Below are positions 18,000 to 55,008 of a stretch of DNA of 64,000 nucleotides, in pieces. The DNA lies in contig DJWO01000001.1 of the NCBI GenBank assembly GCA_002441005.1, forward strand, positions 64,155 to 128,154. Direction: 5' to 3'. Both the position numbers and the translations under genes were made by a program. How positions within the stretch are numbered: position 1 is the stretch's first letter; every line of letters starts with the position of its first letter. The notes below the pieces were generated by a model. The model searched no databases, had not been told where the DNA came from, and worked only from the letters and a program-made list of their open reading frames with translations. Source of the DNA: Candidatus Aminicenantes bacterium UBA6228 (GTDB lineage: Bacteria > Acidobacteriota > Aminicenantia > Aminicenantales > Saccharicenantaceae).

Positions 18000-19258
18000 G
18001 ACCACCTCCTCTGGAACTGGCTGGCCTTCTGCTCAGCGCCTTGCTTTGTTTTCTTCTGTCTCTCTTTTACATTATTGTCTCCTATTACTCCCGCCTCGGT
18101 TTTTCCCGCCTGCTTGGCCAGGTCAAGACCGAAACCAAACAAAAGGTCCTTGATCATTACGATGAACTGAAAATCGCCGTTGATTATGCCCGGATGTTTT
18201 TCTTTCTGGCTTTTATAGTTTATGTTTATCTTCTCTGGCCAAAAGTTAGTCTCTGGCCCTTGTGGCTTTTTCTCGGTCTGGCCGCCGGTTATTTGATTCT
18301 TTTTGATTATTTGCCACGGCTGGCCTTCTATCTGGTAAAGGAACACGGCCTTGGTATTTTTTTGCCGGCCTTACGTGGTCTCATCTGGCTGCTGACTCCG
18401 GCCCTGATCCTGCCTCGCTTCTGGTTGAAAAAGGAAGAACTGAGGCAGGCGGCTGATCGTAGCCATGAAACTTCTGATCAAGAGATAGACACTTTCATTG
18501 ATGAAGCCACCGAGGAAGGCATCATTGAAAAAGATCAGAATGAACTCCTGCGAGGAGTGGTCGAATTCGGAGACCGGACTGTCCGGGAAATCATGACCCC
18601 CCGGACAAAAATTATAGCCATTGAGCGGGGAACAACCATCCGGGAGCTAAAAGAGCTGATCGTCCGGGAAAAATATTCCAGAATTCCTGTCTATAAAGAC
18701 CGTCTTGATAATATCGAAGGCATGGTCATAGCCAAGGATCTGCTGGAATATACTGACGGACAGCAGGCCGGTCGCCAGATTGATTTTCTGGTCAGGCAGG
18801 TGATGTTTGTACCGGAAACGATGCAGGTCAAAGACCTGCTCAAAGAATTTAAAAAGGTCAGGCAAAAAATAGCCATGGTCGTTGATGAATACGGCGGCGT
18901 AGCCGGCCTGGTAACAATGGAAGATCTTCTGGAGGAGATTGTCGGAGATATCCAGGATGAATATGATATTGAAGAACCACAGATTATCGTTGAGAAGCCT
19001 GACTCCTATCTCGTCGGGGGTGAAACTGAAATAGAAGACCTGGAAGAGATTTTGAAGGCAGATCTGGCTGAAGACAATTATCTGACAGTCAACGGCCTGC
19101 TCAATCAATGTCTGGGGCGGCTGCCCCGGCCGGGAGAAAAAGTGAAAATAGGCGAATTCAATTTTGAAGTCCTGGAAGTTAATGACAAGAGTATTAAAAG
19201 AGTCCGGCTGACCAGAAACCCCTCTGGGGCTCAAAACGGAACTGATCAGAAGGAGTAA
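17996..19258 (+). CDS. CNNM/CorC-HlyC family protein (DUF21 TM domain + tandem CBS + CorC_HlyC)
   Basis: 420 aa. Four N-terminal TM helices. CBS pair (IMTPRTKIIAI..., IEGMVIAKDLL). C-terminal transporter-associated domain. 4-nt overlap with ybeY. Confidence 0.85.
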   Translation: MRPPPLELAGLLLSALLCFLLSLFYIIVSYYSRLGFSRLLGQVKTETKQKVLDHYDELKIAVDYARMFFFLAFIVYVYLLWPKVSLWPLWLFLGLAAGYLILFDYLPRLAFYLVKEHGLGIFLPALRGLIWLLTPALILPRFWLKKEELRQAADRSHETSDQEIDTFIDEATEEGIIEKDQNELLRGVVEFGDRTVREIMTPRTKIIAIERGTTIRELKELIVREKYSRIPVYKDRLDNIEGMVIAKDLLEYTDGQQAGRQIDFLVRQVMFVPETMQVKDLLKEFKKVRQKIAMVVDEYGGVAGLVTMEDLLEEIVGDIQDEYDIEEPQIIVEKPDSYLVGGETEIEDLEEILKADLAEDNYLTVNGLLNQCLGRLPRPGEKVKIGEFNFEVLEVNDKSIKRVRLTRNPSGAQNGTDQKE

Positions 19259-19264
19259 GCAGGC

Positions 19265-20239
19265 ATGCCAGCCAGAAAAAAAGAGAAAAAGAGCCAGTTT
19301 CGGACCGGTTATGTAGCTCTGGTTGGAAGACCAAATAGCGGCAAATCAACCCTGCTTAATACCCTGATCGGCCAGAAAATTGCCATCGTTTCCAATAAGC
19401 CTCAGACCACCAGAATCAGTTTGCTGGGGATTAAGACTACCAGCCGCGGTCAGATTATTTTTGTTGATAATCCCGGTATTCATAAGCCTTTGCATCTGAT
19501 GAACAGAAGAATGATGAATTATGTTTATTCTTCGCTGGAAACAGCTGATCTGATTCTGCTCCTGATCGAAGCCAATAAAAAATTCGGCCAGGGCGATAGA
19601 TATGTCCTCGAAATCTTGAAAAAGGTCAAGACGCCGGTTTTTCTCTTGATTAACAAGATTGACCTGGTTAAAAAGGATAGACTATTGCCCGTCATTGATA
19701 AATACAAAGATCTTTTCCCTTTTCGTGAAATCATTCCCATCTCGGCTCTTAAGGGCGACAATCTTGACCTCCTGGAAAACTTAATCTATGACTATTTACC
19801 GCAGGCCGAAAAAATATACTCGGATGAAGAGATAACCGATCAATCAGAAAGATTCCTGCTGTCAGAAATAATCAGAGAGAAAATCTTAAATCTGGTGGAA
19901 GAAGAATTGCCCTATACTACCGCTGTGGTCATCCGCTCGATTGAGCGGCCTCAGGCGGCGGATAGCGCTCTGGAGGGGGAAGAAAGTTCCGGACCAAGTT
20001 CATCAGGGAACCAGCCTCTGACCAGGATCAAAGCCGATATCCTGGTCGAAAGGGAAAATCACAAGGGTATTATCATCGGGCGCCAGGGCGGAATGATCAA
20101 GACCATCGGCACCCAGGCTCGAAAAGAAATAGAAGACATTCTGGAAAGCCGGGTCTTCCTCGAGTTAAGCGTCAGAGTAAGAGAAAAATGGCGTGATTCA
20201 GAAGAAGTCCTTGACCTGATTGAAGAGCAAAAAGAATAA
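19265..20239 (+). CDS. era: GTPase Era
   Basis: 324 aa. G1 GRPNSGKST, G3 DNPG, G4 NKID. C-terminal KH domain (IIGRQGGMIKTIG). Roughly 25-aa Ser/Gly-rich insertion between GTPase and KH domains. Confidence 0.9.
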   Translation: MPARKKEKKSQFRTGYVALVGRPNSGKSTLLNTLIGQKIAIVSNKPQTTRISLLGIKTTSRGQIIFVDNPGIHKPLHLMNRRMMNYVYSSLETADLILLLIEANKKFGQGDRYVLEILKKVKTPVFLLINKIDLVKKDRLLPVIDKYKDLFPFREIIPISALKGDNLDLLENLIYDYLPQAEKIYSDEEITDQSERFLLSEIIREKILNLVEEELPYTTAVVIRSIERPQAADSALEGEESSGPSSSGNQPLTRIKADILVERENHKGIIIGRQGGMIKTIGTQARKEIEDILESRVFLELSVRVREKWRDSEEVLDLIEEQKE

Positions 20240-20298
20240 AGCTGAATTAATATTGTCAAAGTTCAAAGCCAGGAACAGTCAATCTTAACTCCTGCTTA

Positions 20299-20327
20299 TT
20301 GACAACTTTCTTGTTTGATGAGAAAAT
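20299..20327 (+). promoter_or_regulatory. Candidate sigma70-type promoter for tRNA-His
   Basis: TTGACA at 20299-20304. 17-18 nt spacer. A-rich -10-like hexamer (gaaaat/aaaatt). About 15-20 nt upstream of the mature tRNA 5' end. Read by eye only. Confidence 0.35.
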
Positions 20328-20342
20328 TCTAATCCTTCCGGT

Positions 20343-20419
20343 GGTGAGTGTAGCTCAACGGTTAGAGCACTGGACTGTGGATCCAGTGGTTGGGGGTTCG
20401 ATTCCCCTCACTCACCCCA
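20343..20419 (+). tRNA. tRNA-His (anticodon GTG)
   Basis: Cloverleaf folded by hand. Encoded G-1 plus acceptor GTGAGTG pairing with CACTCAC. D-arm GCTC/GAGC. Anticodon stem CTGGA/TCCAG with loop CTGTGGA. T-arm GGGGG-TTCGATT-CCCCT. Discriminator C. Encoded CCA. Confidence 0.85.
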
Positions 20420-20509
20420 GTTCCCATCTATTGAAGCGATTGTTCTTTTCTAACCTTTTCTGCCGGTGATAATTTTAGGATGGCTGTGGCTTCGTTAGCA
20501 GCCAACAGA

Positions 20510-39814: not shown

Positions 39815-39902
39815 GCCGAAGTGGTGGAATTGGCAGACACGCTAGCTTGAGGGGCTAGTTCCCGCAAAAATGGGAGTAGGGGTTCGAGTCCCCTCTTCGG
39901 CA
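39815..39902 (+). tRNA. tRNA-Leu (anticodon GAG), type II with long variable arm
   Basis: Acceptor GCCGAAG/CTTCGGC. Anticodon stem CTAGC/GCTAG with loop TTGAGGG. Variable arm TCCCG-CAAAAA-TGGGA. T-arm AGGGG-TTCGAGT-CCCCT. Discriminator A. CCA not encoded. Confidence 0.85.
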
Positions 39903-42238: not shown

Positions 42239-42312
42239 CGCGCCCGGGGAGATTCGAACTCCCGGCCTCAGGATTCGAAGTCCTTCGCTCTATCCAGCTG
42301 AGCTACGGGCGC
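42239..42312 (-). tRNA. tRNA-Arg (anticodon TCG)
   Basis: Reverse complement folds as GCGCCCG-TA-GCTC-AGCTGGATA-GAGC-G-AAGGA-CTTCGAA-TCCTG-AGGCC-GGGAG-TTCGAAT-CTCCC-CGGGCGC-G. Anticodon TCG. CCA not encoded. Confidence 0.8.
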
Positions 42313-42584: not shown

Positions 42585-44375
42585 ATGAAACCAATTAAAG
42601 GGCAACAGAAGAAGGGCAAAATAACGAGAAAAACTTCCCTGAATAACCGAGGGCTTTCCCGGAAATTATGGGATCAGGCCCCTTTCGCCTGTCTTCTTCT
42701 AAATACCAAAGGCATCATTACCAGCGTTAATCAGACAGAAGCCAGACTACTGGGCTATAAAAAAGAGGAGCTGGTCGGTCAGCCAATATTTAATTTTATT
42801 CTGCCCGAGCAACAGGCCGAAGCTAAAAAAAAGTTTCAGCAAAAGTTAGCCGGGAAGCCTGTTCCCAGAATCAATGACAGAATTCTGGTTAGAAAGGATG
42901 GTTCAAAAATCCAGCTGGCAGTTAATGACCTGATTGTACGGGATGACCGGGGGAAGCCAACCGGTGTTTATGGCACCATGTTCGATATAACAGATTATAA
43001 GAAGATAGAAGCCGACCTGAGGACATCCGAGGAGCGCTACAAGGACCTGGTGGAAAAAGCCGGAATTGCGATTCTCATTGATGATCAGCGGGGAAATTTT
43101 ATCTATGCCAATAAGAGGTATGCTGAAATTTTTGGCTATCCTGCCGAAGAGATAAAAAACTTATCAATTTTTTCAGTGGTTCATCCTGATGACCGGAAGA
43201 AAGTCAGGTCCTATCACCAGGGACGTTTGGTGGGAAAAAAGGTGCCAGCCAGGTATGAATTTAAAGGGATTAAAAAAGATGGTTCTATTATTTATTGCGA
43301 AGTAGACAGTGCACCTCTTAAAGAAGGTAAAGTAGCAGTTGGAACACGTTCTTACCTCTGGGATATAACTACGCGCAAAAGGACAGAAGCAGCTACCTTA
43401 GAGAGCGAAGGGCTCTACCGCTCGATTGTTGAACATTCTCATGATGGCATTTTATTGATTGATGAGAATTACAAGATTATCTATTCCAACAACGAATTAA
43501 ACCATAATCTGGATTATTCCTCTGATGAGATTCTGGGCCATGACTTCCGGGACTTTCTGGATGAAGAAAGCCGGCCACTGGTGGCTGACCATTATCTTCG
43601 AAGACAGAGAGGAGAAAAAGTTCCACCCCGTTATGAATTCAATATAGTTAGAAAAGACGGAACCAAACGAAGGGTAGAAATTAGCTCTGACGTCATAAAA
43701 GATGCGGCCGGTAAGAAGAGGACCGTGGCTCAGCTTCTGGACATTACTGACCGTAAAAAAGCTGAAGAGCTGAATAGGGAAATGATGAAGAACCTGCGGA
43801 AAGCACTGGACGGCACCATCAACGTCATCGCTTTGACGGTTGAAGCCCGTGATCCATTCACTTCCGGTCACCAGCGGCGGGTGGCTGATTTAGCCCGGGC
43901 CATAGCCACGGAAATGGGTTTGCCCAGAGACTCGATTGAAGCTATCAGGTCGGCCGCTATCATCCACGACTTAGGGAAAATACATGTTCCGGCTGATATT
44001 CTCAACAAACCCAGCAGTTTGACGGAGATAGAGTTTAACTTCATCAAGGTTCACCCCGAAGTGGCTTACAATATTCTCAAGGATATAGAATTTCCCTGGC
44101 CGGTGGCGGAGATTATCTATGAGCACCATGAAAGATGGAACGGCTCTGGCTATCCCCGGGGTCTATCCGGCCAGAACATCCTGCTGGAGGCCAGAATTCT
44201 GGGGGTAGCTGATGTGGTCGAAGCCATGGCTTCTCACCGGCCTTACCGGCCGCCGCTTGGGATAGAGAAAGCCCTGGAAGAGCTGGTGGCGAACAGTGGC
44301 CGGCTTTACGATCCAGAGGTGGTTGAGGCCTGCCTGATGGTCTTTAACCAAAAACACTATGCTTTTAAGTCATGA
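42585..44375 (+). CDS. Triple-PAS sensor with C-terminal HD-GYP domain (putative c-di-GMP phosphodiesterase)
   Basis: 596 aa. Three PAS/PAC modules (ITSVNQTEARLLGYKKEEL, IYANKRYAEIFGYPAEEI, IYSNNELNHNLDYSSDEI). HD-GYP region HQRRVADL...IHDLGK...HHERWNGSGYPRGL. Confidence 0.8.
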   Translation: MKPIKGQQKKGKITRKTSLNNRGLSRKLWDQAPFACLLLNTKGIITSVNQTEARLLGYKKEELVGQPIFNFILPEQQAEAKKKFQQKLAGKPVPRINDRILVRKDGSKIQLAVNDLIVRDDRGKPTGVYGTMFDITDYKKIEADLRTSEERYKDLVEKAGIAILIDDQRGNFIYANKRYAEIFGYPAEEIKNLSIFSVVHPDDRKKVRSYHQGRLVGKKVPARYEFKGIKKDGSIIYCEVDSAPLKEGKVAVGTRSYLWDITTRKRTEAATLESEGLYRSIVEHSHDGILLIDENYKIIYSNNELNHNLDYSSDEILGHDFRDFLDEESRPLVADHYLRRQRGEKVPPRYEFNIVRKDGTKRRVEISSDVIKDAAGKKRTVAQLLDITDRKKAEELNREMMKNLRKALDGTINVIALTVEARDPFTSGHQRRVADLARAIATEMGLPRDSIEAIRSAAIIHDLGKIHVPADILNKPSSLTEIEFNFIKVHPEVAYNILKDIEFPWPVAEIIYEHHERWNGSGYPRGLSGQNILLEARILGVADVVEAMASHRPYRPPLGIEKALEELVANSGRLYDPEVVEACLMVFNQKHYAFKS

Positions 44376-44444: not shown

Positions 44445-45587
44445 TCAATTACTTTCTGGATTGAAGTCTTTTTCCAGAAGCTTTAATTTGAGCTCAAAAG
44501 GCTCTTCCCAGGTTCTCTTAAAAGCAAAGCCAGCGATAACCCAGATGACTCCTGGCTCCGGCTCAAAAACATAAGGATAACTTAGCTGGCCGCCTGGCTG
44601 CCGGGCAATAATCACCGGCGGTGACCAGTTAAAGCCGTCGTCAGAAAAGGCTAAGCTCAGCTCTTCCCGGTGCCAGGAAGCAGGCAGTTCAGAATGAAAA
44701 GGGGTTGGTCTGGTTTTAGGCCAGGTGCGGCCCTCAGGATTAAGCCTGTTCCAGACGAGAACAAAACGGCCGCTTTGAAGCTTCAGGAGATAACCTGGTG
44801 AGCTGCTGGCCTCAATTAAAGATGGCCAGATTCTCCGCCAGTAGCGGCCATCTTCTGAGATAGCCTGCCAGAAACGGTCAAGGCCGGTTCGGATGAGCAT
44901 CAGCAACCGCCCATCGGGCAGTTCGGCCATGGCTGGTTCAAAGGCCCCATCGTGATGGCCATGTCCACCCAGATCAATCCAGTTGCTGCGACTCCAGGTC
45001 AGCCCTTCGTCGTCAGAATAGAAGGAACAAACCACCAGCCGCCCGGGGTTAGAGACTAAATGCTGGAGAGGAACCACCACCCGGCCGGAAGAGGTCTGGA
45101 CCAAACCAAAAAAGTTCGGGTTATAGCCAGAGAGAAGCCTCTGATTGTCAACCCAGGTTTTCCCGCCGTCCTGGCTCCGGATTGACCAGACTTCCAGCTG
45201 GCAGTCGCCGGGCTCATTCTTTTCCTGGTCCCAGTTGAATTGTCTGCCGTTAAAATTAAGGTAAACAAGGATCAGAACATTGTTTTTTGTCCGGAGAAGA
45301 TAATAAGAAGCAGGTTCTCTGGAATTGAGACCCGAGCAAACAAAAACAGGTTCGGACCAGCTGTGGCCGCCATCATAACTTAAAGAAAATCCTTTCTCAT
45401 CGACAGTGGCCAGGGCGCCCTCAGCCATCAAAATAAAAGGCCCTTTTTTGCCGATGTCAAGAGCCTGACAGGAAGGATGGACCCAGACAGGTTTATCAGT
45501 AGAAAACGAACTCAAAGTAAGGGCCAGCAGCATCCCGGTCAAAACCAGGCTGGTTAAAAAGAAATTGTGCTTCATCATATTTTGCAC
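44445..45587 (-). CDS. Secreted BNR/Asp-box repeat protein (sialidase-like beta-propeller)
   Basis: 380 aa. Signal peptide. At least three Asp-box motifs S-x-D-x-G-x-T-W (SYDGGHSWS, SQDGGKTW, SDDEGLTWS). Confidence 0.6.
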   Translation of the reverse strand: MQNMMKHNFFLTSLVLTGMLLALTLSSFSTDKPVWVHPSCQALDIGKKGPFILMAEGALATVDEKGFSLSYDGGHSWSEPVFVCSGLNSREPASYYLLRTKNNVLILVYLNFNGRQFNWDQEKNEPGDCQLEVWSIRSQDGGKTWVDNQRLLSGYNPNFFGLVQTSSGRVVVPLQHLVSNPGRLVVCSFYSDDEGLTWSRSNWIDLGGHGHHDGAFEPAMAELPDGRLLMLIRTGLDRFWQAISEDGRYWRRIWPSLIEASSSPGYLLKLQSGRFVLVWNRLNPEGRTWPKTRPTPFHSELPASWHREELSLAFSDDGFNWSPPVIIARQPGGQLSYPYVFEPEPGVIWVIAGFAFKRTWEEPFELKLKLLEKDFNPESN

Positions 45588-45629: not shown

Positions 45630-46613
45630 TTAGCGACCGAACCGCAGCAACCCCCGGCTGCAACTGCCGGTGCATCTGGTACAGGAGAAGCAATCAGGCC
45701 TCAGAACCGAGCCCTTAACGATCTCGGCAACCGCCGGACAGGGAGATTTAATTATACAGGCCTGACAGTCGGTGCAGTTGTCTTTCTTTTTAATCACCCG
45801 AAAGAGGGCGATCTGTTCAACGACGTTGGCCATCAGGCCAACCGGACAGACTAAGTAACAGAAGGGACGGTAGGTAAAAAAGGCAAAGATAATAGTTAAA
45901 ATAAGCGGCAAAAAGTTGATGAGATTATCAATCAGGGCAGCTGCCCAGCTCCATTCATAGCCATGAAAGGCATTGATATAATCATAAAGCGACAGCGGAA
46001 CAACCCGGCCGTTAGAAACAGTGTGGATGACCGCTGTCCAGCTCAGAAAGATAAAGGCGATAAAAATCAGGATCCTGATGGTCTGGGTCAGCCGGAAACT
46101 CAGCTTGTGTCTTTTTATTTTCAATTTATCGGCCAGCATGGAGATAAGTTCCTGAATGGCCCCGACCGGGCAGACCCAGCCGCAAAACAGCTTTGGCCCG
46201 ATTAAGGTCAGGAATAAAATAACCGCCAGGAAAACCATCATTGGCAGACCAAAGCCATAAAGGATGGACTTGGTCACGGTGCAGACCGGAGAGGGATGCA
46301 TCGAGAAACCGGAAAAAAACTTAATCCCTAAATTGGCTGAAACCCCATAGAGGAAAGTTGAAACCAGCAAAATCAGCACTTTAAACCGGTCATTCATTTT
46401 TCTGGAGAGGAGCAAAATTAGAACCAGGGCGGCAATGATGAGCATGGTCAGGAACTTGGGTCTCATTAAAAACTGAAGAAAAGTGGGCGCAGCCTGACGG
46501 CCTTGTCCCCCGCCACTCCCGGTTCTCTCCTGAGCCAGAGCCAGAACTGGCAAGCTCAATAGACTGGCCAAAAACAACCAGAGGCCAAAACGCCGAAAAT
46601 TTCTCTTTAACAT
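45630..46613 (-). CDS. NapH/MauN-type integral-membrane polyferredoxin
   Basis: 327 aa. TM helices. Two cytoplasmic CxxxCP motifs (CGWVCPVG, CYLVCPVG). C-terminal CxxCxxC...CP and CxxCxxCxxxC ferredoxin-like clusters (CTDCQACIIKSPCP, CFSCTRCTGSC). Confidence 0.65.
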   Translation of the reverse strand: MLKRNFRRFGLWLFLASLLSLPVLALAQERTGSGGGQGRQAAPTFLQFLMRPKFLTMLIIAALVLILLLSRKMNDRFKVLILLVSTFLYGVSANLGIKFFSGFSMHPSPVCTVTKSILYGFGLPMMVFLAVILFLTLIGPKLFCGWVCPVGAIQELISMLADKLKIKRHKLSFRLTQTIRILIFIAFIFLSWTAVIHTVSNGRVVPLSLYDYINAFHGYEWSWAAALIDNLINFLPLILTIIFAFFTYRPFCYLVCPVGLMANVVEQIALFRVIKKKDNCTDCQACIIKSPCPAVAEIVKGSVLRPDCFSCTRCTGSCSRGLLRFGR

Positions 46614-46796: not shown

Positions 46797-48533
46797 ATGG
46801 CTAAAACTCAATCACCCCTGCCTGTTTCCTACTGGGAGCTTCAAAAAAAACAAAGGATTGTTTCCACTCTTTTATTTATTTTTCTTTTTATTTTCTATCT
46901 GGTTGCTATCGGCCTGCTTCTGACCATAATTCTCCTTGGAGGGCAGGTTTTCCTGCCTGGCTCCAATCCATTTTCCTCTTCGAATTTATTTTTATATGCA
47001 GCAGTCGCCACTTTACTGGCGGCAGTGGTCACGGTCTTAAACTTTCTCCAGGCGAAAAAGGCTGGGGTCAGTTATATTCTGAGTAACCTCCGGGCTTACC
47101 CGCCAGACCCTGATGACCGTTATCATTTGAGTTTTATTAATGTGGCTGAAGAGATGAAAATTTCTTCCGGGCTTCCCCGCCTTAAGACTTATGTTATCCC
47201 TTCGGTCAACATTAATTCTCTCTCGCTTTTCGATCAGGACAATACTCCAGCCATAGCCGTAACCGAAGGGCTGCTGGCTGAAGCCAGCCGCGACGAACTC
47301 CAGGCAGTAGCTGCTCATGAAGCCGCTCATATCCAGAAGGGCGACACTTTTCTTTTGACTCTGATCTGTTCTCTGACCGCTTTTTATGAAAAGTTCTTAG
47401 ATTCGCTGGAAAAAGAGCCAGAAGATTATCAGCGCTTCCAGCTCTCCCGCACCGGCCACCAGGCCACCTCTGCTCCCTTAGCTTATGTGGCCAGTTCAAT
47501 CTCCTTTCTCTTGATTAAATTTTTTACCATGCTGGTTTCGCAGAACCGGGAGCTGCTGGCTGATGCCACCGCCGTTGAATTAAGCCGGGATCCCGCTGCT
47601 CTGGCCCGGATTATTTATAAAGCCTGGATAGCTAATTCTTACCTGGGAGATACCTCTACTCTGACGCCTCTTTTCCTGGTTCCACCGGACTCAAAAGAGA
47701 CTACTGATAACCGCTGGAGCCGGCTGTTCAGTACTCATCCACCTGTGGAAAAAAGGCTGAGTCTGCTGGCCGGGATGACTCACCGGACGGTAGAAGAAAT
47801 AAAAAATGAGGTCAGACAGCAAGAGAAACAAAGAGAAGATAGCCGCCAGGTCATCCAGGCTTCGCTCGAAGGTGGTTATCCGGAAAAGGAAAAAGCTATC
47901 TTAAATTTAAAAGAACAGGCCGAGACTGAGCTCCACAAAACTGAGGTCTGGGAAATCAAACAGGCCGGAGGGCAATGGGCCGGGCCCTTTACCCTCGGGG
48001 CCCTGGTTTCCCAGCCGTCTTTCAGCCCGGCCATCAGGGTTAGAAACCTTAAAGAAAACCGCCAGGGCCGGGCCCTGGAATTTCCTCAAATCAGGTTTGC
48101 CCTCTATCGCCAGGCCAAGAATCAGCCAGTTGACCCGGCCTTAGCCAATCTGTGCCCGGCCTGCCAGACCGGGCTCCAGGAGTCTTTTTACGAAGGAGTC
48201 CAGATCAAAATCTGTCCTGCCTGCTCGGGCCAGCTGATCAGAATGGCTGACATTGAAAAAGTCCTGGCCCGCCAGGAATATGATTTTTCGCCAGCTCTTA
48301 GAGAGAAAGCCAGCCTTTATCAGGAAGCACTGCTAAACCCGGGCAAAAGGGCCTTAGTTTTTCCCAAAAAGAAACCTCTCCCCTGCCCGGCTTGTGGACT
48401 TCAACTGGTGGTTAAACCTTTTAATTACTATTATGTTTTCCCTGTCTATAAATGCTATCGATGCCAGTTGATCTGGTTTGAGACTGATGAACTGGAAATC
48501 CTTCAGATTCTTTTCCAGAACCGGGATCATTAG
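46797..48533 (+). CDS. HtpX-like M48 zinc metalloprotease with C-terminal GYF-like segment and two zinc ribbons
   Basis: 578 aa. Two N-terminal TM helices. HEAAH zinc motif, then a further TM hairpin and downstream Glu region (NRELLAD). Coiled-coil linker. GYF/DUF4339-like segment W-x-I-x(4)-G-Q-W-x-G-P-F. Two CPxC-x15-18-CxxC ribbons (CPACQT...CPACSG and CPACGL...CYRCQ). Confidence 0.7.
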   Translation: MAKTQSPLPVSYWELQKKQRIVSTLLFIFLFIFYLVAIGLLLTIILLGGQVFLPGSNPFSSSNLFLYAAVATLLAAVVTVLNFLQAKKAGVSYILSNLRAYPPDPDDRYHLSFINVAEEMKISSGLPRLKTYVIPSVNINSLSLFDQDNTPAIAVTEGLLAEASRDELQAVAAHEAAHIQKGDTFLLTLICSLTAFYEKFLDSLEKEPEDYQRFQLSRTGHQATSAPLAYVASSISFLLIKFFTMLVSQNRELLADATAVELSRDPAALARIIYKAWIANSYLGDTSTLTPLFLVPPDSKETTDNRWSRLFSTHPPVEKRLSLLAGMTHRTVEEIKNEVRQQEKQREDSRQVIQASLEGGYPEKEKAILNLKEQAETELHKTEVWEIKQAGGQWAGPFTLGALVSQPSFSPAIRVRNLKENRQGRALEFPQIRFALYRQAKNQPVDPALANLCPACQTGLQESFYEGVQIKICPACSGQLIRMADIEKVLARQEYDFSPALREKASLYQEALLNPGKRALVFPKKKPLPCPACGLQLVVKPFNYYYVFPVYKCYRCQLIWFETDELEILQILFQNRDH

Positions 48534-48765
48534 AGTAAAAACATTTCTGCCTTACTGTCCGGGCCGACTCCTGGTGAACTTCAGGGCATTTCTGTATCAG
48601 AAGAGCTCATCTCCGCCTGAAAAAAAGATAACTGTCAGGGCAGGGGGAATTTCATCTGGAGATTCACCTCTAAGGGTGATTGAAGATGAGAAACCGAAGT
48701 GAGATACCATAAGTGCAATGGCCGAAATCCCAGTTTGGGGTTAATTTTTGAAAGAGGGTAAGACC

Positions 48766-50577
48766 ATGACGAAAAACAAAATCCTGCTGATAGACTTCGA
48801 CAACGAGTTCCTGAAATTTCTGGGCCAGGCCTTAAGCCAGGAAGGGTATGAAATCCAGACAGCAACTGATGGCCTGGCCGGCTTTGAAAAATTTTCTGAG
48901 TTTCAACCGGATCTGGTCATCATGGAAGCGATGCTGCCCAAATTCCACGGTTTTGAACTCTGTTCGCGTATTACTTCCCATCCGACCAAAAAAGCACCGG
49001 TTATAATTGTTACCGGAATTTACAAAGATTCTGTTTATAAAACCGAGGCTTTAAAAAGCCTGGGAGCTTCCGCCTTTTTTGAGAAGCCATTGAATCTCGA
49101 AGCCCTGCTGACCAGAGTTTATGAGCTGATTGGTAAGCCAGAGGTCAAAAAGCACCAGGTTAAGACTGAAGAAGATAAAGACCTGGATGAGTTATTGAAA
49201 CAAGCTCTGGCTTCGGCTTATACTCCTGCTCAGTCTTCACCAACTGTCAAAACAGTTGAAAAGACTCCCCGGAGAGAAGAAATTAGAAAGACTCCACCTA
49301 CCCCCCAGGATGATGAAATAGATCTGATTTTGAAATCGAAACTTAAAGACCTGATTTCAACTTCAGAGGAAAAAACAGCGGCAGCCGCCGTTCACCAGGC
49401 CCCGGCTTCAGCTCCGCCTAAAAAGGCTGAAGCCCCCAGGCCGGCACCAGTGACTCAAACTAAAAAGCCGGAACCGGCTGTAAGTCAAGCCTCAACCGGA
49501 AGCCAGGCTGTTAAAAAGCTGGCTGAAAAAGAAGCAAAGACTACCGGTCTCAGTCAAACTATGAGACCTGAACCAAGAGCTCCCCAGAAATCTGATCAAC
49601 CGAGAACCAGTCCTCCAGCGGCGGCCAGTTTCGAAGAGACCTCCAGGCCAGCACCGGCTGCCGTTAATCCTTTTAAGGCTTATACCGAAAGCAACGGGAA
49701 AAAGAGTACCAGGAAGAGTCCGGCCAAATATATTGGCCTGGCGGCCTCGGCCCTGGCCGTCATCGGGCTGGTTGCCTTTTTAACTTTAAACAAGAAAAAA
49801 ACTCCAGAATTTTCGGGCCAGCCGGCCAACCAGACAGCTGCCCTGCAAACAGCTGGAGCTGATCAGAACCAGAGCCTGCCAGTTCAAGACAATCTTAATA
49901 AGGAAGAAGATATAAATAAAGAAATCGAAAAACAGATGGCCGAATACCGCAGTCAGCAGGCCCGGGCAGATAAAAATGCTCCCTCTGCCGCCAATCAGAA
50001 CCTGAAAGGCAGCCCGGCCGGCCGGACTTCTAATAAAACGGCGGCTATTCCGGCTGCACCTATTATTCCTGAGGAAACACCAAAAATAGAAGTAAATATG
50101 GAGAGCGGACAACAAACCACAGTTCCAGCTCAATCTAATCCAGCTCCAGTGACCTCCGTTCAACCTGAAGAAACAAAAGTGAACAATGAAGAGCCTCCGG
50201 TCACAGCCAGTCAGGACAATCAGGCCAAAACTGAAGACCAGCCGGTTAGCCTGGCCAGCCAGAAGGCTAAGCCAGGGGAAGTCTTTCCCCTTTCTGCCGT
50301 TGATGTCGAACCAAAAGTAGTTAAGAGTATAGACCCCATCTACCCCGAAGTTGACCGACGGGCAGGCGTCAGGGGCAATATTATCGTCAACGCCCTGATT
50401 TCAGAAAATGGCGATGTCCTGGAGGCGGTGGTAATTAGGGGAATCAGTGGCTCAGTCACTTTAGAGAAAGAGGCCGTTTCGGCCGTCAAAAAATGGAAGT
50501 TCTTGCCAGCTGAAAAAGATGGTGTTAAAGTAAAGGTCTGGAAACCAATTACCATTGGTTTCGGTTTAAATAAATAG
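48766..50577 (+). CDS. Pseudo-receiver (REC, Asp->Glu)-Pro/Ala-rich linker-TM-TonB C-terminal domain fusion
   Basis: Start at ATG 48766 (MTKNKILLID), with RBS agaggg upstream. The ORF-track start at 48748 is a TTG. Residues 1-125 align position by position with CheY-like REC (KILLIDFDNEF, Thr in VIIVTGI, Lys in FFEKP), but the phospho-acceptor position reads DLVIMEAMLP, with Glu instead of Asp. About 200-aa P/A/K/E-rich linker. One TM helix (IGLAASALAVIGLVAFL). Periplasmic segment. C-terminal TonB_C fold signature (EPKVVKSIDPIYPEVDRRAGVRGNIIVNALISENGDV...KKWKF). Confidence 0.7.
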   Translation: MTKNKILLIDFDNEFLKFLGQALSQEGYEIQTATDGLAGFEKFSEFQPDLVIMEAMLPKFHGFELCSRITSHPTKKAPVIIVTGIYKDSVYKTEALKSLGASAFFEKPLNLEALLTRVYELIGKPEVKKHQVKTEEDKDLDELLKQALASAYTPAQSSPTVKTVEKTPRREEIRKTPPTPQDDEIDLILKSKLKDLISTSEEKTAAAAVHQAPASAPPKKAEAPRPAPVTQTKKPEPAVSQASTGSQAVKKLAEKEAKTTGLSQTMRPEPRAPQKSDQPRTSPPAAASFEETSRPAPAAVNPFKAYTESNGKKSTRKSPAKYIGLAASALAVIGLVAFLTLNKKKTPEFSGQPANQTAALQTAGADQNQSLPVQDNLNKEEDINKEIEKQMAEYRSQQARADKNAPSAANQNLKGSPAGRTSNKTAAIPAAPIIPEETPKIEVNMESGQQTTVPAQSNPAPVTSVQPEETKVNNEEPPVTASQDNQAKTEDQPVSLASQKAKPGEVFPLSAVDVEPKVVKSIDPIYPEVDRRAGVRGNIIVNALISENGDVLEAVVIRGISGSVTLEKEAVSAVKKWKFLPAEKDGVKVKVWKPITIGFGLNK

Positions 50578-50603
50578 ACCGGAGAGAAGTAAGGAGTCAA
50601 AAG

Positions 50604-50843
50604 ATGGGCATCTCAAAAGATCAAGAAGAGCTTTATAAGAAGACTCTGGAAGATGTGCGCAGCCAGCTTTCAGATATTGACGCCGAGGTAGAAAAAGAGC
50701 TGCAGCGGGTCAGACAAACCCTGGCTCAACTGCAGGAGCAGAAAAAATCATTGAAGATGGTTTATGAAGGAATTGCCAAGCTCCTCGGAATCGAAAGTGA
50801 TCTGGAAGACGACTCGGCTGAGACTAGCATCCCAAAGATGTAA
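50604..50843 (+). CDS. Small coiled-coil hypothetical protein
   Basis: 79 aa, 26 nt downstream of the REC-TonB gene on the same strand. Heptad-like charged helix (EELYKKTLEDVRSQLSDIDAEVEKELQRVRQTLAQLQEQKKSLK). No known motif. Confidence 0.35.
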   Translation: MGISKDQEELYKKTLEDVRSQLSDIDAEVEKELQRVRQTLAQLQEQKKSLKMVYEGIAKLLGIESDLEDDSAETSIPKM

Positions 50844-50984
50844 TCATTGATATAGAAGCAACCTGGCCAGAGCCTCACCTTTCTTTCGATTGACCTTTAA
50901 AACCGAGAGGGAAAAGGGTCTTGTCTTGCCAAATAGCTCTTTTTGAGGTATTTTTATACTTTAAATTTTACCCTGGATACCCTG

Positions 50985-51632
50985 ATGTTTATGCTTATTG
51001 GCTTTCTGATCGGGTTCTTTGCAGCTGTTCCGGTTGGCCCGGTCAATATTTACATTGTCTCTCAGACTCTCAAGAGAGACTTTTTTCATGGGATGATAGC
51101 CGGGCTGCTCACTGCCCTGCTTGATCTGACTTTCTGTTTAGTTTCTCTTATTGGCTTCTTTCATATTTCTCTAAATCTTTCAGATTATAGTTTCTGGCTT
51201 AAACTGGCCGCTGGAGCCATCTTGCTTTTTCTTGGCTTGAAATTATTTCACGATGCCAGGGCTTTTAAGCTCAATACCGAAAAAAATGGTCCGGTTTCCA
51301 AAACTGCCCGGCCTCTCTTCGGGGTAATTCTATTGTATGTCTCCAATCCCTCTCTCTACGCTTTCTGGATTGGAGTGGCCGGGGCAGTGAATGCTCATGG
51401 CCTGCTTAAGAACGGATTCTGGCCAGCTGTCTTCTTCGGTCTATCCTGCGGCCTGGGTGCTCTTCTCTGGTACTTCTTTTTAGTCAGGCTGGTTTCTCAT
51501 CATCAAGCCAGATTCCAGGAGACTACTTTTAAAAAATTGTTTATCATCCTGGGACTCTTTTTGATTGGTTTTGCTCTTTTTACTTTTGTTTCAGCCTTTG
51601 CCAATATTAAACTGGCCGGCCAGGTGTTTTGA
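50985..51632 (+). CDS. LysE/RhtB-family amino-acid efflux translocator
   Basis: Start at ATG 50985 (MFMLIGFLIGFFAAVPVGPVNIY). The ORF-track start at 50943 is a TTG. Six TM helices. LysE-type N-terminal PVGP motif. Confidence 0.7.
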   Translation: MFMLIGFLIGFFAAVPVGPVNIYIVSQTLKRDFFHGMIAGLLTALLDLTFCLVSLIGFFHISLNLSDYSFWLKLAAGAILLFLGLKLFHDARAFKLNTEKNGPVSKTARPLFGVILLYVSNPSLYAFWIGVAGAVNAHGLLKNGFWPAVFFGLSCGLGALLWYFFLVRLVSHHQARFQETTFKKLFIILGLFLIGFALFTFVSAFANIKLAGQVF

Positions 51633-51690: not shown

Positions 51691-54600
51691 ATGACCGGGG
51701 AGTTAATTCTACCAAAAGATACGGAGGTTTCCAGGCCGGAGTTTATCTTACTTGAGGCTTCCGCCGGTACCGGTAAAACTCATGCTCTGACCTTAAGGTT
51801 TGCTCAATTTCTGCTGTCAGATAAAATCAGGAATAACCAGCTCAATCAAATTCTGGCCATCACCTTCACTCATAACGCCGCCAATGAAATGAAAGACAGA
51901 ATAATCGGTTGGCTTAAAGTCACCCACTTTGGGCAGGACACGGCCCGGCTGAAAGACATTAAAGAGCTGGTCAGCCTGCCGGCAGAAGCTTTTCCCGGCC
52001 GGGCCGAAGAAAAGCTGGAATATCTTTTTGACCATTACAGCGACTTTCAGGTCACAACCATTGACAGCTTCATGACCGATGTTTTTAAGGCGTCTGCCAT
52101 AGAAATGGGCTTCAGCCCTGACTTTGGCATTACTCTCAATACCGCCCCGGTCATCAATTACGCCTTTTACCGGTATTTAAGAAATATTACAGCCGAATCA
52201 CAAGATGGACAGTTATTGCTCAGGATTACGGATAGCCTTAAAGAAATGAAAGGCAGCGATAAAGCCTTCCTCTGGAATCCGGCTGATGAAATTCTCGAGA
52301 CCTTTACTCAGTTTTATCGAAAACTGGAGGCTCTTTACCGCCAGCCTGAAATTAAAAGACCGGAGGAGTTCCAGCTGGAGCTCGAGAAAGCTGAACGTGA
52401 CTGGCATGGCTCTCTACAAAAATTGCGTCAGCTCTTGATAAATACACCTCTGGAAAGAGCTGAGCGCTCGGCCATCTGGCGACGTTTGAACTCAGATAAT
52501 ATAAGGGATTGGTTCGATTGCTCGTTTAAAACTGACCCTGTCAAAAAAACAGAATCGCCTGATCGGCTGGCGATTTATCAGGAAGTTAATAAAGGCCTGA
52601 ATGCTTTTAAAGAAAAGCTAAAAAAATATAAAAGGCTCTATGCCGCCTCTTATTTTCAGCCTCATCTTCAGGTTTATCACCGGCTCCTCGACCGTCTGGA
52701 TTTTATCAAAAAAGAAAAGGGCCTGATTTTTCTGGACGATGTCAATCGCCATCTGGCTGCTTATCTTCAGACCGGCGTGGTGCCCGACATCTATCTTTGC
52801 CTCGGTGGCCAGATTTACCATTTCCTGATTGATGAATTTCAGGATACCTCCCCTATTCAATGGAAGAATCTGGTACCACTGATCGATAATGCCCTTTCCC
52901 AGGGTGGAAGTTTGTTCATCGTTGGCGACACCAAACAGGCAATTTATGGCTTCCGGGAAGCTGATTATCAGATCATGGTTGACCTGAAAAAAGGGGACGA
53001 AAAATTCTATTCAGTTGAGGTCTGTGTCAAACCGCTGGTTACCAACCGCCGTAGCCGGCAAGCTATCCTTGATTTTGTCTCGAGCATTTTCCCCAAAGGA
53101 ATTAAGAGCCTGGATGTCGGCCAGGATAATAAGAAAATGGCTGATAAGATAGAGCCCTGGAAGCAAGCCGCCAACAGCAGCGGGCTGGATAACTTCGAAT
53201 GTCAGGGAGTTGAGGATAAAACTCAAGGTGGCGGTGACATTTTTCCCGGTTACGTGGAAATGGAGTTTTTTCAACCGCCCCAAAAATCAAAAAATAAGGA
53301 CGAACAGACCGAAGATAATGGCGAAGAAGTTCCCTCCGGGCCGGAGGCCGAAGAAGAGGTTGAGCTGGAAGACGCAGCCCTCAAAAAAAGAGTTCAGGAA
53401 CTGATCCCTGATCTTCAAAAACGTGGCTATGACCTCTCGGATATAACCATTTTAGCCTACAAAAACGAGACGGTGGTCAGAGCCGCCTCCTGGTTAAATG
53501 AGAAACAAATCCCCTTTGTGACCTTTTCTTCACTTGATATCAGACAGCGGCCGGTTATTAAAGAAATTATGGCTCTGTTGCAGTTTCTTGATTTTCCACT
53601 CGATAATCTGAACTTTTCTACTTTTCTTCTTGGCGGTCTTTTTCAAAACAAGCTCAGAGCTGATGGCCATTCCGGGCAAGAAAGGGAGAAACTTGCGGAA
53701 TTCATTCTGGAAACCAGGCTCAGGAGCGGCCAGAAAGATTATCCCCTTTACACTTATTTCAAGCAAAAATATCAGGATCTCTGGGAATCATATTTTGAGC
53801 CTCTTTACAGGACAGTTGGCTATTTGCCTCTTTATGATCTGGTCAGCGAGATTTACCGCACCTTTTCTGTTTTTGATCCCGGCCTTACCGGTGATGAACA
53901 GTCTTCGCTGATTAAACTTCTGGAAGTTATAAAACAATTTGAGGGTGAGGGCGGCAGCAATCTCCGGGATTTTATGCGATTTTCCGGAGAAGAAACAGAA
54001 GACACTTCAGTTTGGACAGTGGATGTGCCCGAAAGTATTAAGGCGGTCAGGATTATGACCATCCATAAGGCCAAGGGACTTGAATCCCCGGTGATCATTT
54101 TGCTTCTCTACCGCGAACAAAGCCAGTCTATTCCCTTTTTCCTTAAAGAAGAAGATAGCGGCCAGGGGCCGGCCCGGGTAAAGGTTCTTAAGCTTTCTAA
54201 AGACATCATTTCCGACGATGAAGAATTAAAAGAAATCCACCAAGAAGCCACCAGAAAGGAACTGGCCAATCGGTTGAATACTTTTTACGTCGCCCTGACC
54301 AGAGCTAAAGAAGAGCTTTATATTTTAGGGCAGCGTGGCCAAAAAAATTATTTCCCTTTTAACTTTTTAGAATCATTAGGTTTTCCACTAGATCAGAAAT
54401 TTCAATCGGCCGAAGAGAAGCCGGCCAGAAAAGCCAGGCAAACAGCTGGCGGCCTTCCCGGCCAGCTGGAAATGCCGAATCCACCTCTCAGTTTTCTCCA
54501 TGAAGCTCCGGACAGATTCCGTCTGGTTAAAAATCTTCCCCATTACCGTCAGGAGAGGCGTGGTGAGTTAATTCATGCCATCCTCGAGAAAATTGATTTC

Positions 54601-55008
54601 CTGGAAGAGAACCTTGAGGAGCAACTGGAAAAAATCATCTCTGACCGGGCCTTCCGAAAATATCAGGCAGAAGAAAAGGAAGAGGCCAGAAAATCTCTCC
54701 TCCAGTTTTTAAAGAGACCGGAGGTGGCTGAATTTTTTAGACAGCGGCCGGGCCGGGAGGTAAGAACAGAAGCCGATATGGTAAATAGACAAGGTGAGCT
54801 TTACCGCACTGACCGCCTGCTGATCGAGCCTGAAGTCATCTCGATTATTGATTTTAAAACAGGCCAGTTCTCCGATGAGGCTATTAAAAAAGGTCACGCC
54901 AGGCAGGTAAAAAACTATAAGGCTATTCTCGAAGAAATATATCCAGGCAGAAAGATAAGTGGCTGGCTTCTTTATATTGATTCTGCTGAGCGGGAGGAGG
55001 TTCTTTGA
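51691..55008 (+). CDS. addA: ATP-dependent helicase/nuclease subunit A (UvrD-like helicase with C-terminal PD-(D/E)xK nuclease)
   Basis: 1105 aa. Walker A EASAGTGKTHAL. Motif II FLIDEFQDTSPIQW. Motif VI-like VALTRAKEELY. C-terminal RecB-type nuclease (IIDFKTG...QVKNYKAILEE). Confidence 0.8.
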   Translation: MTGELILPKDTEVSRPEFILLEASAGTGKTHALTLRFAQFLLSDKIRNNQLNQILAITFTHNAANEMKDRIIGWLKVTHFGQDTARLKDIKELVSLPAEAFPGRAEEKLEYLFDHYSDFQVTTIDSFMTDVFKASAIEMGFSPDFGITLNTAPVINYAFYRYLRNITAESQDGQLLLRITDSLKEMKGSDKAFLWNPADEILETFTQFYRKLEALYRQPEIKRPEEFQLELEKAERDWHGSLQKLRQLLINTPLERAERSAIWRRLNSDNIRDWFDCSFKTDPVKKTESPDRLAIYQEVNKGLNAFKEKLKKYKRLYAASYFQPHLQVYHRLLDRLDFIKKEKGLIFLDDVNRHLAAYLQTGVVPDIYLCLGGQIYHFLIDEFQDTSPIQWKNLVPLIDNALSQGGSLFIVGDTKQAIYGFREADYQIMVDLKKGDEKFYSVEVCVKPLVTNRRSRQAILDFVSSIFPKGIKSLDVGQDNKKMADKIEPWKQAANSSGLDNFECQGVEDKTQGGGDIFPGYVEMEFFQPPQKSKNKDEQTEDNGEEVPSGPEAEEEVELEDAALKKRVQELIPDLQKRGYDLSDITILAYKNETVVRAASWLNEKQIPFVTFSSLDIRQRPVIKEIMALLQFLDFPLDNLNFSTFLLGGLFQNKLRADGHSGQEREKLAEFILETRLRSGQKDYPLYTYFKQKYQDLWESYFEPLYRTVGYLPLYDLVSEIYRTFSVFDPGLTGDEQSSLIKLLEVIKQFEGEGGSNLRDFMRFSGEETEDTSVWTVDVPESIKAVRIMTIHKAKGLESPVIILLLYREQSQSIPFFLKEEDSGQGPARVKVLKLSKDIISDDEELKEIHQEATRKELANRLNTFYVALTRAKEELYILGQRGQKNYFPFNFLESLGFPLDQKFQSAEEKPARKARQTAGGLPGQLEMPNPPLSFLHEAPDRFRLVKNLPHYRQERRGELIHAILEKIDFLEENLEEQLEKIISDRAFRKYQAEEKEEARKSLLQFLKRPEVAEFFRQRPGREVRTEADMVNRQGELYRTDRLLIEPEVISIIDFKTGQFSDEAIKKGHARQVKNYKAILEEIYPGRKISGWLLYIDSAEREEVL

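Follow-up and report, generated by a model that had tools for sequence, protein, structure and literature searches.

A receiver–TonB_C protein and a small coiled-coil protein encoded by a putative two-gene operon of Candidatus Aminicenantes, a possible signalling variant of TonB

Do three neighbouring genes of Candidatus Aminicenantes bacterium UBA6228 form a single envelope device, or do only some of them belong together? The genes lie on contig DJWO01000001.1 in a stretch of 64,000 nucleotides (nt), referred to here as the 64-kb window, and coordinates are positions within this window; L-numbers denote fetched loci carrying relatives. The genes encode an M48 protease (gene A), a protein with a receiver and a TonB_C domain (gene B) and a 79-residue open reading frame (ORF; gene C). 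A sequence-only reading of the window had described them as co-oriented and had proposed that together they make up a proteolysis-gated signalling device. We confirmed the orientation, the gaps (232 nt between A and B, 26 nt between B and C) and the domains in the window, and many homologues were found for each of the three ORFs, so all three are regarded as real genes. The database names of these homologues place the organism in Candidatus Aminicenantes/Saccharicenans, within Acidobacteriota. The best reading of the comparative analysis is that B–C is a signalling variant of TonB plus a new small partner. With a confidence that falls a little short of even, we propose that B and C make up an operon of two genes that is complete in itself and has a promoter and a palindromic operator of its own, that A is a neighbouring HtpX-type protease and no component of it, and that the pair couples outer-membrane receptor events to cytoplasmic partners. 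The three-part proteolysis-gated device is not supported.

To estimate the linkage between B and C, we compared loci found by two routes, a B-anchored search of a genome collection and a search of a metagenome collection by C alone; metagenome contigs closely related to one another are among the loci counted, and the counts lack phylogenetic independence. In the C-anchored set, for which the best 80 of 131 loci were examined, the end of a TonB_C-coding region was found 16–78 nt upstream of C (median 41) in 82 of the 86 loci with at least 400 nt of upstream sequence. A receiver was also encoded upstream in all 56 loci with at least 2.6 kb. From the other side, C was present at 17 of the 19 full-length B loci found through B, and in 17 loci a C homologue followed each full-length Aminicenantes-type or kinase-type B (see below) within tens of nt. 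A ribosome-binding site (RBS) precedes C in 17/17 related loci examined, AAGGAG-like in 16 of them. The conservation of C in L001 reached 87% identity vs. 52% for B. Co-transcription of the small ORF with the TonB fusion, as predicted earlier, is supported by these frequencies. B and C almost certainly form one tight, co-transcribed unit, with C as the presumed partner of B. The idea that the whole triplet is conserved as a unit held for its B–C part and failed for A.

The B-proximal part of the A–B gap is far more conserved than the remainder. The conserved pattern consists of AA-n-n-TCATCC, ∼5 nt, the palindrome TCACC-N6-GGTGA abutting TTGACC, 17–19 nt and an A/T-rich hexamer; the first element in the window is GGGGGAATTTCATCT, and the operator can be written as TCACC-N6-GGTGATTGAC for scans (Table 1). 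Of 64 loci, 61 carry the palindrome and the −35 element ahead of B, regardless of which gene comes before, and in all but two of those 61 the element lies 85–152 nt before the B start codon. The palindrome is the sole exact match in the window. Among 1.44 Mb of fetched loci, the full motif occurred only before B, with one exception: L127 has no B, and the motif precedes C there. We interpret the palindrome as a protein-binding DNA operator because its arms never covary and it abuts the −35 box; on the same grounds (invariant arms without covariation, position next to the −35 box) an RNA hairpin was rejected. The palindrome is thus a predicted 16-bp, protein-binding operator. We concluded that B–C has its own predicted promoter and a dedicated operator inside the A–B gap, apart from A. 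Separate transcripts were the very outcome that the sequence-only reading had named as speaking against a single three-gene unit, and the conserved promoter points to it. Rfam detected three tRNAs only in the window and no known RNA element in the A–B gap. The B leader contains a small terminator-like hairpin with a U-rich run just before the RBS. A total of 7 close relatives retain its 6-bp stem, with one compensatory pair; on this weak support, it may act as an attenuator or as a stabilising element.

We examined the position of A in searches started from B, from C and from A, and rejected an obligate three-gene unit. A is within reach of B in 25 of the 42 loci with at least 3.5 kb upstream of B (∼60%), at a distance of 200 nt to 3.3 kb. 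Opposite-strand genes (papain-like peptidase, helical lipoprotein) lie between the two in some loci. A phage-type integrase gene sits there in L135 (9966–11057), which indicates that the A–B junction tolerates insertions. A LysE exporter gene was found downstream of C in 24/25 loci with A vs. 1/13 without A; given this tie to an unrelated gene, the link of A to B–C suggests a clade-level synteny pattern. B–C is flanked by genes for URO-D-like, radical SAM, ROK-like, GH38 and RlmN proteins in a second Aminicenantes clade, with no M48 gene, and B–C without A was also found in all distant relatives. Three A-anchored look-ups found B–C downstream, and two (L133/L134 and L139) found none within 8 kb. 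A is therefore a frequent neighbour of B–C and, as judged from gene order, not an obligate part.

These data bear directly on the proposal that A, B and C are one proteolysis-gated envelope device, in which the M48 protease would cleave B or C, perhaps recruiting the proline-rich linker of B via its zinc ribbons or middle domain. Consistent with it, A is co-oriented and upstream of B in the 25 loci across deep divergence (37–46% identity of A), its conserved cytoplasmic domains could bind partners, and the cytoplasmic linker of B is indeed proline-rich. However, the variable gap with its interposed opposite-strand genes or integrase, the equal tracking of LysE, the whole clade and all distant relatives that have B–C without A, the A-type proteases without B–C within 8 kb and the conserved promoter of B–C itself all argue the other way, and Pfam found neither GYF nor any other adaptor family in the A middle domain of 30 homologues at E-values up to 1. 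We consider a gating role of A improbable; in the preferred reading, the protease is not to be assumed part of the system, which corrects the initial three-gene model.

The start codon of B is most likely the ATG at 48766 and not the upstream TTG at 48748, since M-x-K-K-I-L opens every homologue and the TTG is unsupported. Residues 6–118 match Response_reg (PF00072, E 1.2e-20) and the C-terminal residues 524–600 match TonB_C (PF03544, E 4e-14); the latter domain carries a YP motif, and B passes the TIGR01352 model (44.6 bits, cut-off 27.1). The single hydrophobic helix (residues 322–341) is central and follows ∼320 cytoplasmic residues. Residues 353–523 form a low-complexity, Ala/Gln/Pro-rich periplasmic spacer. 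The cytoplasmic linker is proline-rich, predicted to be disordered and contains short acidic amphipathic motifs, in the window DLDELLKQAL and DDEIDLILKSKLKDL (residues 139–148 and 182–196). Such motifs recur in the cytoplasmic linkers of B relatives, in a noisy alignment, and they are candidate docking sites for C.

D10, D12, K107 and P108 of the receiver are invariant and T83 is nearly invariant. The acceptor position is Glu in all 63 Aminicenantes-type B copies (Glu54 in the window), so that B has a receiver domain without the phospho-acceptor Asp of response regulators. As predicted from this replacement, the domain is a pseudo-receiver fixed in a non-phosphorylatable form. No histidine kinase gene adjoins B in the window. 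The domains, Glu54 and the one helix agree with the earlier description of B as a membrane-spanning transducer whose pseudo-receiver lies in the cytoplasm and whose TonB_C head lies in the periplasm. The conserved Ser/His of the TonB anchor was absent from the B helix; neither His nor a conserved polar residue was present in 20 aligned homologues.

C is predicted to be a single helix at residues 5–61 (predicted local distance difference test score, pLDDT, 86), followed by an acidic disordered tail. As read from the sequence, its hydrophobic positions have a regular 3–4 heptad spacing, and it carries a conserved LQ-x2-KK-x5-Y-x-G motif. A profile search of 1.84 billion representatives gave 138 relatives, almost all of 70–110 residues; for this reason C appears to be a small, narrowly distributed, unannotated family. 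No known family could be assigned, as Pfam and NCBIfam returned only sub-threshold generic coiled-coil matches, and nothing significant was found in a PDB profile search. The database names of the homologues (PspA, FlaC, ‘Zn-ribbon protein’) were rejected as generic coiled-coil mislabels. The few long matches gave no clue from fusion partners: they arose where ORF calling ran on into accD, LysE or the end of TonB_C, apart from one TIR protein whose coiled coil is generic.

Kinase-type relatives of B consist of a receiver, a Ser/Thr kinase, a membrane helix, a spacer rich in Glu/Lys or in Pro, and TonB_C, and are followed by C. Full-length copies were found in L042 (5620–9096), L043 (9326–12397), L140 (6001–8781) and L141 (6001–8751); in L044 and L046 the contig begins within the gene, and only the part from kinase to TonB_C, then C, is visible. 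A kinase-only protein is followed by C and then accD in L129–131 (L131, 3915–5984). Since C also follows kinase-only proteins, it appears to travel with the cytoplasmic signalling part and not with the TonB_C domain. The acceptor position of the kinase-type receivers is Ser in L042, L140 and L141, and Ala in L043. Ser in receivers with a fused kinase, as against Glu in those without one, suggests that the switch may have been rewired from Asp phosphorylation to Ser phosphorylation to a fixed phosphomimic.

A stand-alone paralogue of the B pseudo-receiver (∼160 residues, LEAMLPKLHGF motif as in B, Glu at the acceptor site) was also noted in L011–L040 (e.g., L027 10001–10489). In many Aminicenantes the next genes downstream of it are accD, folC and the ATP synthase operon, and neither C nor the palindrome is present there. 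The accD and folC genes also neighbour B–C or kinase–C in L043, L044, L131 and L141, and this shared neighbourhood suggests an ancestral location.

Related loci revealed a link to TonB-dependent import that the sequence-only reading did not contain. The gene order in L140 and L141 is B, C, Peripla_BP_2, FecCD and ATP-binding cassette (ABC) ATPase; the C gene of L140 overlaps the next gene by 11 nt, and a receptor-like gene lies upstream. The Terriglobia-like loci L024 and L028 have the same order without C (B, Peripla_BP_2, FecCD, ABC ATPase). L028 further contains a cobalamin riboswitch (18110–18331; Rfam RF00174, 90 bits) before a Plug/TonB_dep_Rec receptor gene (18259–20454), 3.5 kb downstream of the B–importer cluster, and the region looks like a corrinoid uptake locus. 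Because B or B–C directly precedes Peripla_BP_2, FecCD and ABC ATPase genes in four loci, the B family is probably tied to TonB-dependent import of chelates or corrinoids, and its ancestral neighbourhood would have included uptake genes.

The domain anatomy of B, the B–C linkage, the promoter separate from A and the association of relatives with BtuFCD/FecBCD-type importers are the observations from which a mechanism may be drawn. The TonB_C head of B would bind TonB-dependent receptors of the outer membrane at their TonB box. The direction is most likely outside-in, with the head sensing ligand-loaded receptors. The receiver together with C, which would bind the cytoplasmic part of B, would serve as a cytoplasmic output platform, and in sister lineages a Ser/Thr kinase would occupy the same position. 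A kinase, a membrane helix and an outside domain make up the standard receptor-kinase layout; the outside-in direction is favoured because kinase-type relatives share this layout, because the B helix is devoid of the polar residues coupling TonB to ExbBD, and because no exbBD was seen linked to B among the recurrent neighbour clusters annotated. In its most specific form, which we regard as quite unlikely, the proposal states that TonB_C is a periplasmic sensor of TonB boxes exposed by ligand-loaded receptors and not a force transmitter. B would then be a one-protein receptor that reports occupancy inward, its output being a Ser/Thr kinase or, in Aminicenantes, a permanently ‘on-like’ Glu receiver plus C. 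The acceptor-site pattern, with Ser beside a fused kinase and Glu in its absence, would fit this form of the proposal. If true, cell-surface signalling would gain a new class that does not depend on ECF (extracytoplasmic function) sigma factors.

Several points weigh against a signalling operon of this kind. The loci counted are related to one another and the C-anchored ones are a best-scoring subset. C was not found with the Terriglobia copies of B, and the window has only a weak −10 element. In Aminicenantes, including the window, neither an importer nor an exbB/exbD gene was seen adjoining B–C; the uptake link comes mainly from four loci of two non-Aminicenantes lineages, and a receptor-like gene upstream of A was seen in five Aminicenantes loci only (L001, L002, L056–58). 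Finally, the contact between B and C, the binding of TonB boxes and the direction of signalling are what we infer from the arrangement of domains and genes. The main rival is that B is a conventional TonB paralogue powered by ExbB–ExbD encoded elsewhere and serving chelate or cobalamin uptake, in which the receiver and C only regulate, dimerise or stabilise and information flows inside-out or not at all. The importer genes directly after B in L024, L028, L140 and L141 and the riboswitch-controlled receptor in L028 speak for this rival, the TonB_C domain of B passes the TonB C-terminal model, and its proline-containing periplasmic spacer is TonB-like. However, the helix has no conserved His/Ser (no His in the 20 aligned sequences), and no exbB/exbD-like cluster was seen within 6–10 kb in ∼100 loci, where recurrent neighbour clusters were annotated only and no search was aimed at ExbB/ExbD. 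The kinase–helix–outside domain layout favours a sensory role of the outside domain, and separate small TonB_C genes are present in some of these genomes. We consider the conventional role unlikely on balance, with a real chance of being correct.

TonB_C and TolA domain III have a common fold, and B–C could on this ground be a structural tether of the TolA kind between the inner membrane and peptidoglycan or the outer membrane (e.g., in division or envelope integrity), with no role in receptor signalling or uptake. The long Glu/Lys-rich helical periplasmic spacer of kinase-type relatives resembles TolA domain II, C is like small division-associated coiled coils, in kind only, and the lack of a linked importer and the rarity of a nearby receptor-like gene in Aminicenantes would fit as well. 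Yet the domain of B matches TonB_C models specifically, the neighbourhood showed no tol or pal genes, importer genes adjoin B in relatives, and the dedicated operator and the receiver/kinase domains point to regulation. A pure tether is thus very doubtful, and the two-gene signalling operon is retained as the preferred reading.

A itself matches Peptidase_M48 (Pfam, E 9.8e-19) and contains two Zn_ribbon_TFIIB stretches; H174, E175 and H178 are invariant among homologues. It shares with HtpX/M48 membrane proteases the HExxH metalloprotease motif, four hydrophobic helices, the Pfam M48 match and the Ste24/HtpX fold, as its AlphaFold2 model (pLDDT 81) resembles Ste24, ZMPSTE24 and HtpX in Foldseek. 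It differs from HtpX in that all NCBIfam HtpX equivalog models score far under cut-off (best 103.4 bits vs. 355), and in an extra cytoplasmic tail of 250 residues that holds the middle domain and the two zinc ribbons. A GYF domain in the middle region, considered from sequence resemblance and the parallel with GltJ (see below), was rejected for want of a Pfam match. The middle fragment had no Pfam match at E-values up to 10, and Foldseek with the whole model returned M48 matches only.

The receptor-like gene of the closest sister lineages (L001 4779–7706, also L002 and L056–58) encodes 975 residues with CarboxypepD_reg and an outer-membrane beta-barrel and lies directly upstream of A in the same orientation; the window has opposite-strand NapH-like and BNR genes in its place. 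In another clade (L137 1741–7844, also L006–L010, L038 and L041), the genes upstream of A encode a BlaI-like repressor, a BlaR1-like M56 protein and a Tricorn/S41-type protease, and A tends to sit among protease genes. The Aminicenantes neighbours as a whole (URO-D-like, radical SAM, ROK-like, GH38, RlmN, papain-like peptidase, PfkB kinase) gave no coherent functional theme. The features of the locus and the surrounding genes of the window are listed in Table 1.

Table 1. Positions of genes, domains, predicted regulatory elements and neighbouring features in the 64-kb window
Feature	Position (nt)	Strand	Basis
Gene A, HtpX-like M48 membrane metalloprotease, 578 residues	46797..48533	+	Pfam, AlphaFold2, Foldseek, synteny
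A: HEAAH motif, residues 174–178	47316–47330	+	
A: middle beta-beta-alpha-beta-beta-alpha domain, no family assigned	47946–48119	+	AlphaFold2 topology
A: two Cys4 zinc ribbons	48153–48224 and 48384–48464	+	
Predicted B–C promoter/operator	48643..48710	+	Conservation in 61/64 loci
First element of promoter/operator	within 48643..48710	+	
Palindrome TCACC-TCTAAG-GGTGA	48664–48679	+	
−35-like TTGAAG (TTGACC in most relatives)	48680–48685	+	
A/T-rich −10-like hexamer	17–19 nt past −35-like element	+	
Small hairpin and U-rich run in B leader, just before RBS	48726..48742	+	Terminator-like site
Gene B, TonB-family envelope-spanning protein, 603 residues from ATG	48766..50577	+	Pfam, NCBIfam, alignment
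B: pseudo-receiver	48781–49119	+	
B: Glu54 codon (acceptor position)	48925–48927	+	
B: acidic amphipathic linker motifs	49180–49209 and 49309–49353	+	
B: membrane helix	49729–49788	+	
B: TonB_C	50335–50565	+	
RBS of C, AAGGAG, 8 nt before start	50590..50595	+	Sequence
Gene C, 79-residue cytoplasmic coiled-coil protein	50604..50843	+	Homologue search, structure prediction, linkage
tRNAs	20344–20416, 39815–39902, 42239–42312		
Protein with three PAS domains and HD-GYP domain	42585–44375		
BNR/sialidase-like protein	44445–45587	−	
NapH-like 4Fe-4S membrane protein	45630–46613	−	
LysE exporter	50943–51632		
AddA-like helicase-nuclease, then 997-residue AddB-like ORF (flank to 57998)	51691–55008		

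Full-text literature searches yielded no account of a receiver–TonB plus C pair, and no description of a receiver–TonB protein, a kinase–TonB protein or C. The nearest relatives in function have to be sought among known envelope and signalling proteins. TonB is a known energy coupler. B has in common with it a bitopic inner-membrane topology, a long flexible proline-containing spacer and a C-terminal TonB_C domain with the YP motif, and some B relatives are encoded beside BtuFCD/FecBCD-type importers and TonB-dependent receptors, neither of which adjoins B–C in the window. The TonB helix is N-terminal and carries the conserved Ser/His, whereas the helix of B is central, lacks them and is preceded by ∼320 cytoplasmic residues that include the pseudo-receiver; no exbBD was seen linked to B among the recurrent neighbour clusters annotated, and a small coiled-coil gene always follows B in Aminicenantes.

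Receiver domains that have lost the acceptor Asp are known from plant PRR/TOC1 (Glu at the acceptor site), FrzS, KaiA and CikA, where these pseudo-receivers are phosphorylation-independent interaction modules. B resembles them in the retained receiver fold, the replaced acceptor Asp (Glu, as in plant PRRs) and the other active-site residues, which are kept. We know of none among these that is fused to a membrane helix and TonB_C. The proposal for B also has a likeness to FecA–FecR–FecI signalling, in which the occupancy of a TonB-dependent receptor is relayed to the cytoplasm via a single-pass inner-membrane protein. The periplasmic contact domain is TonB_C in B and the FecR domain in the Fec system, however, and B differs further in that there is no evidence of regulated proteolysis. 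Neither an ECF sigma factor nor a FecR-type anti-sigma factor was found near B–C in the window, and A is an M48 and not an M50 site-2 protease. In one clade (L126 4823–7064, L035 13207–15488), an operon a few kb from B–C encodes an ECF sigma factor, an anti-sigma factor of the zinc-finger type and a protein with a pair of TonB_C domains; L127 (7560–8768) shows the TonB_C gene alone before the contig end. This operon puts TonB_C to a further signalling use in these genomes.

To our knowledge, the gliding-motility protein GltJ is the only signalling protein on which TonB_C has been shown. In GltJ, which belongs to the Myxococcus xanthus Agl–Glt gliding machinery, cytoplasmic switch domains are followed by a single membrane helix, a flexible stretch in the periplasm and TonB_C; its cytoplasmic part, made of a zinc ribbon, a linker and a GYF domain, binds MglA, AglZ and MglB (PMC11135422). 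B has the same succession of parts, and its cytoplasmic part would likewise act by binding proteins and not by catalysis. B differs in having a pseudo-receiver and acidic linker motifs instead of a zinc ribbon and GYF. The zinc ribbons of the locus are on A and not on B, no gliding or Mgl genes are nearby, and GltJ is without an equivalent of C. From these comparisons, B appears closest in function to TonB and GltJ, having neither the canonical TonB anchor nor a phosphorylatable response regulator. The locus thus defines a TonB-type family with receiver or kinase domains that, in Aminicenantes, is invariably linked to a mini-protein and a dedicated operator, and B, C and the 16-bp operator are three testable parts from a widespread uncultured lineage. 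Together with GltJ, the B family would show that the architecture of TonB has been reused more than once to join the outer membrane to cytoplasmic signalling.

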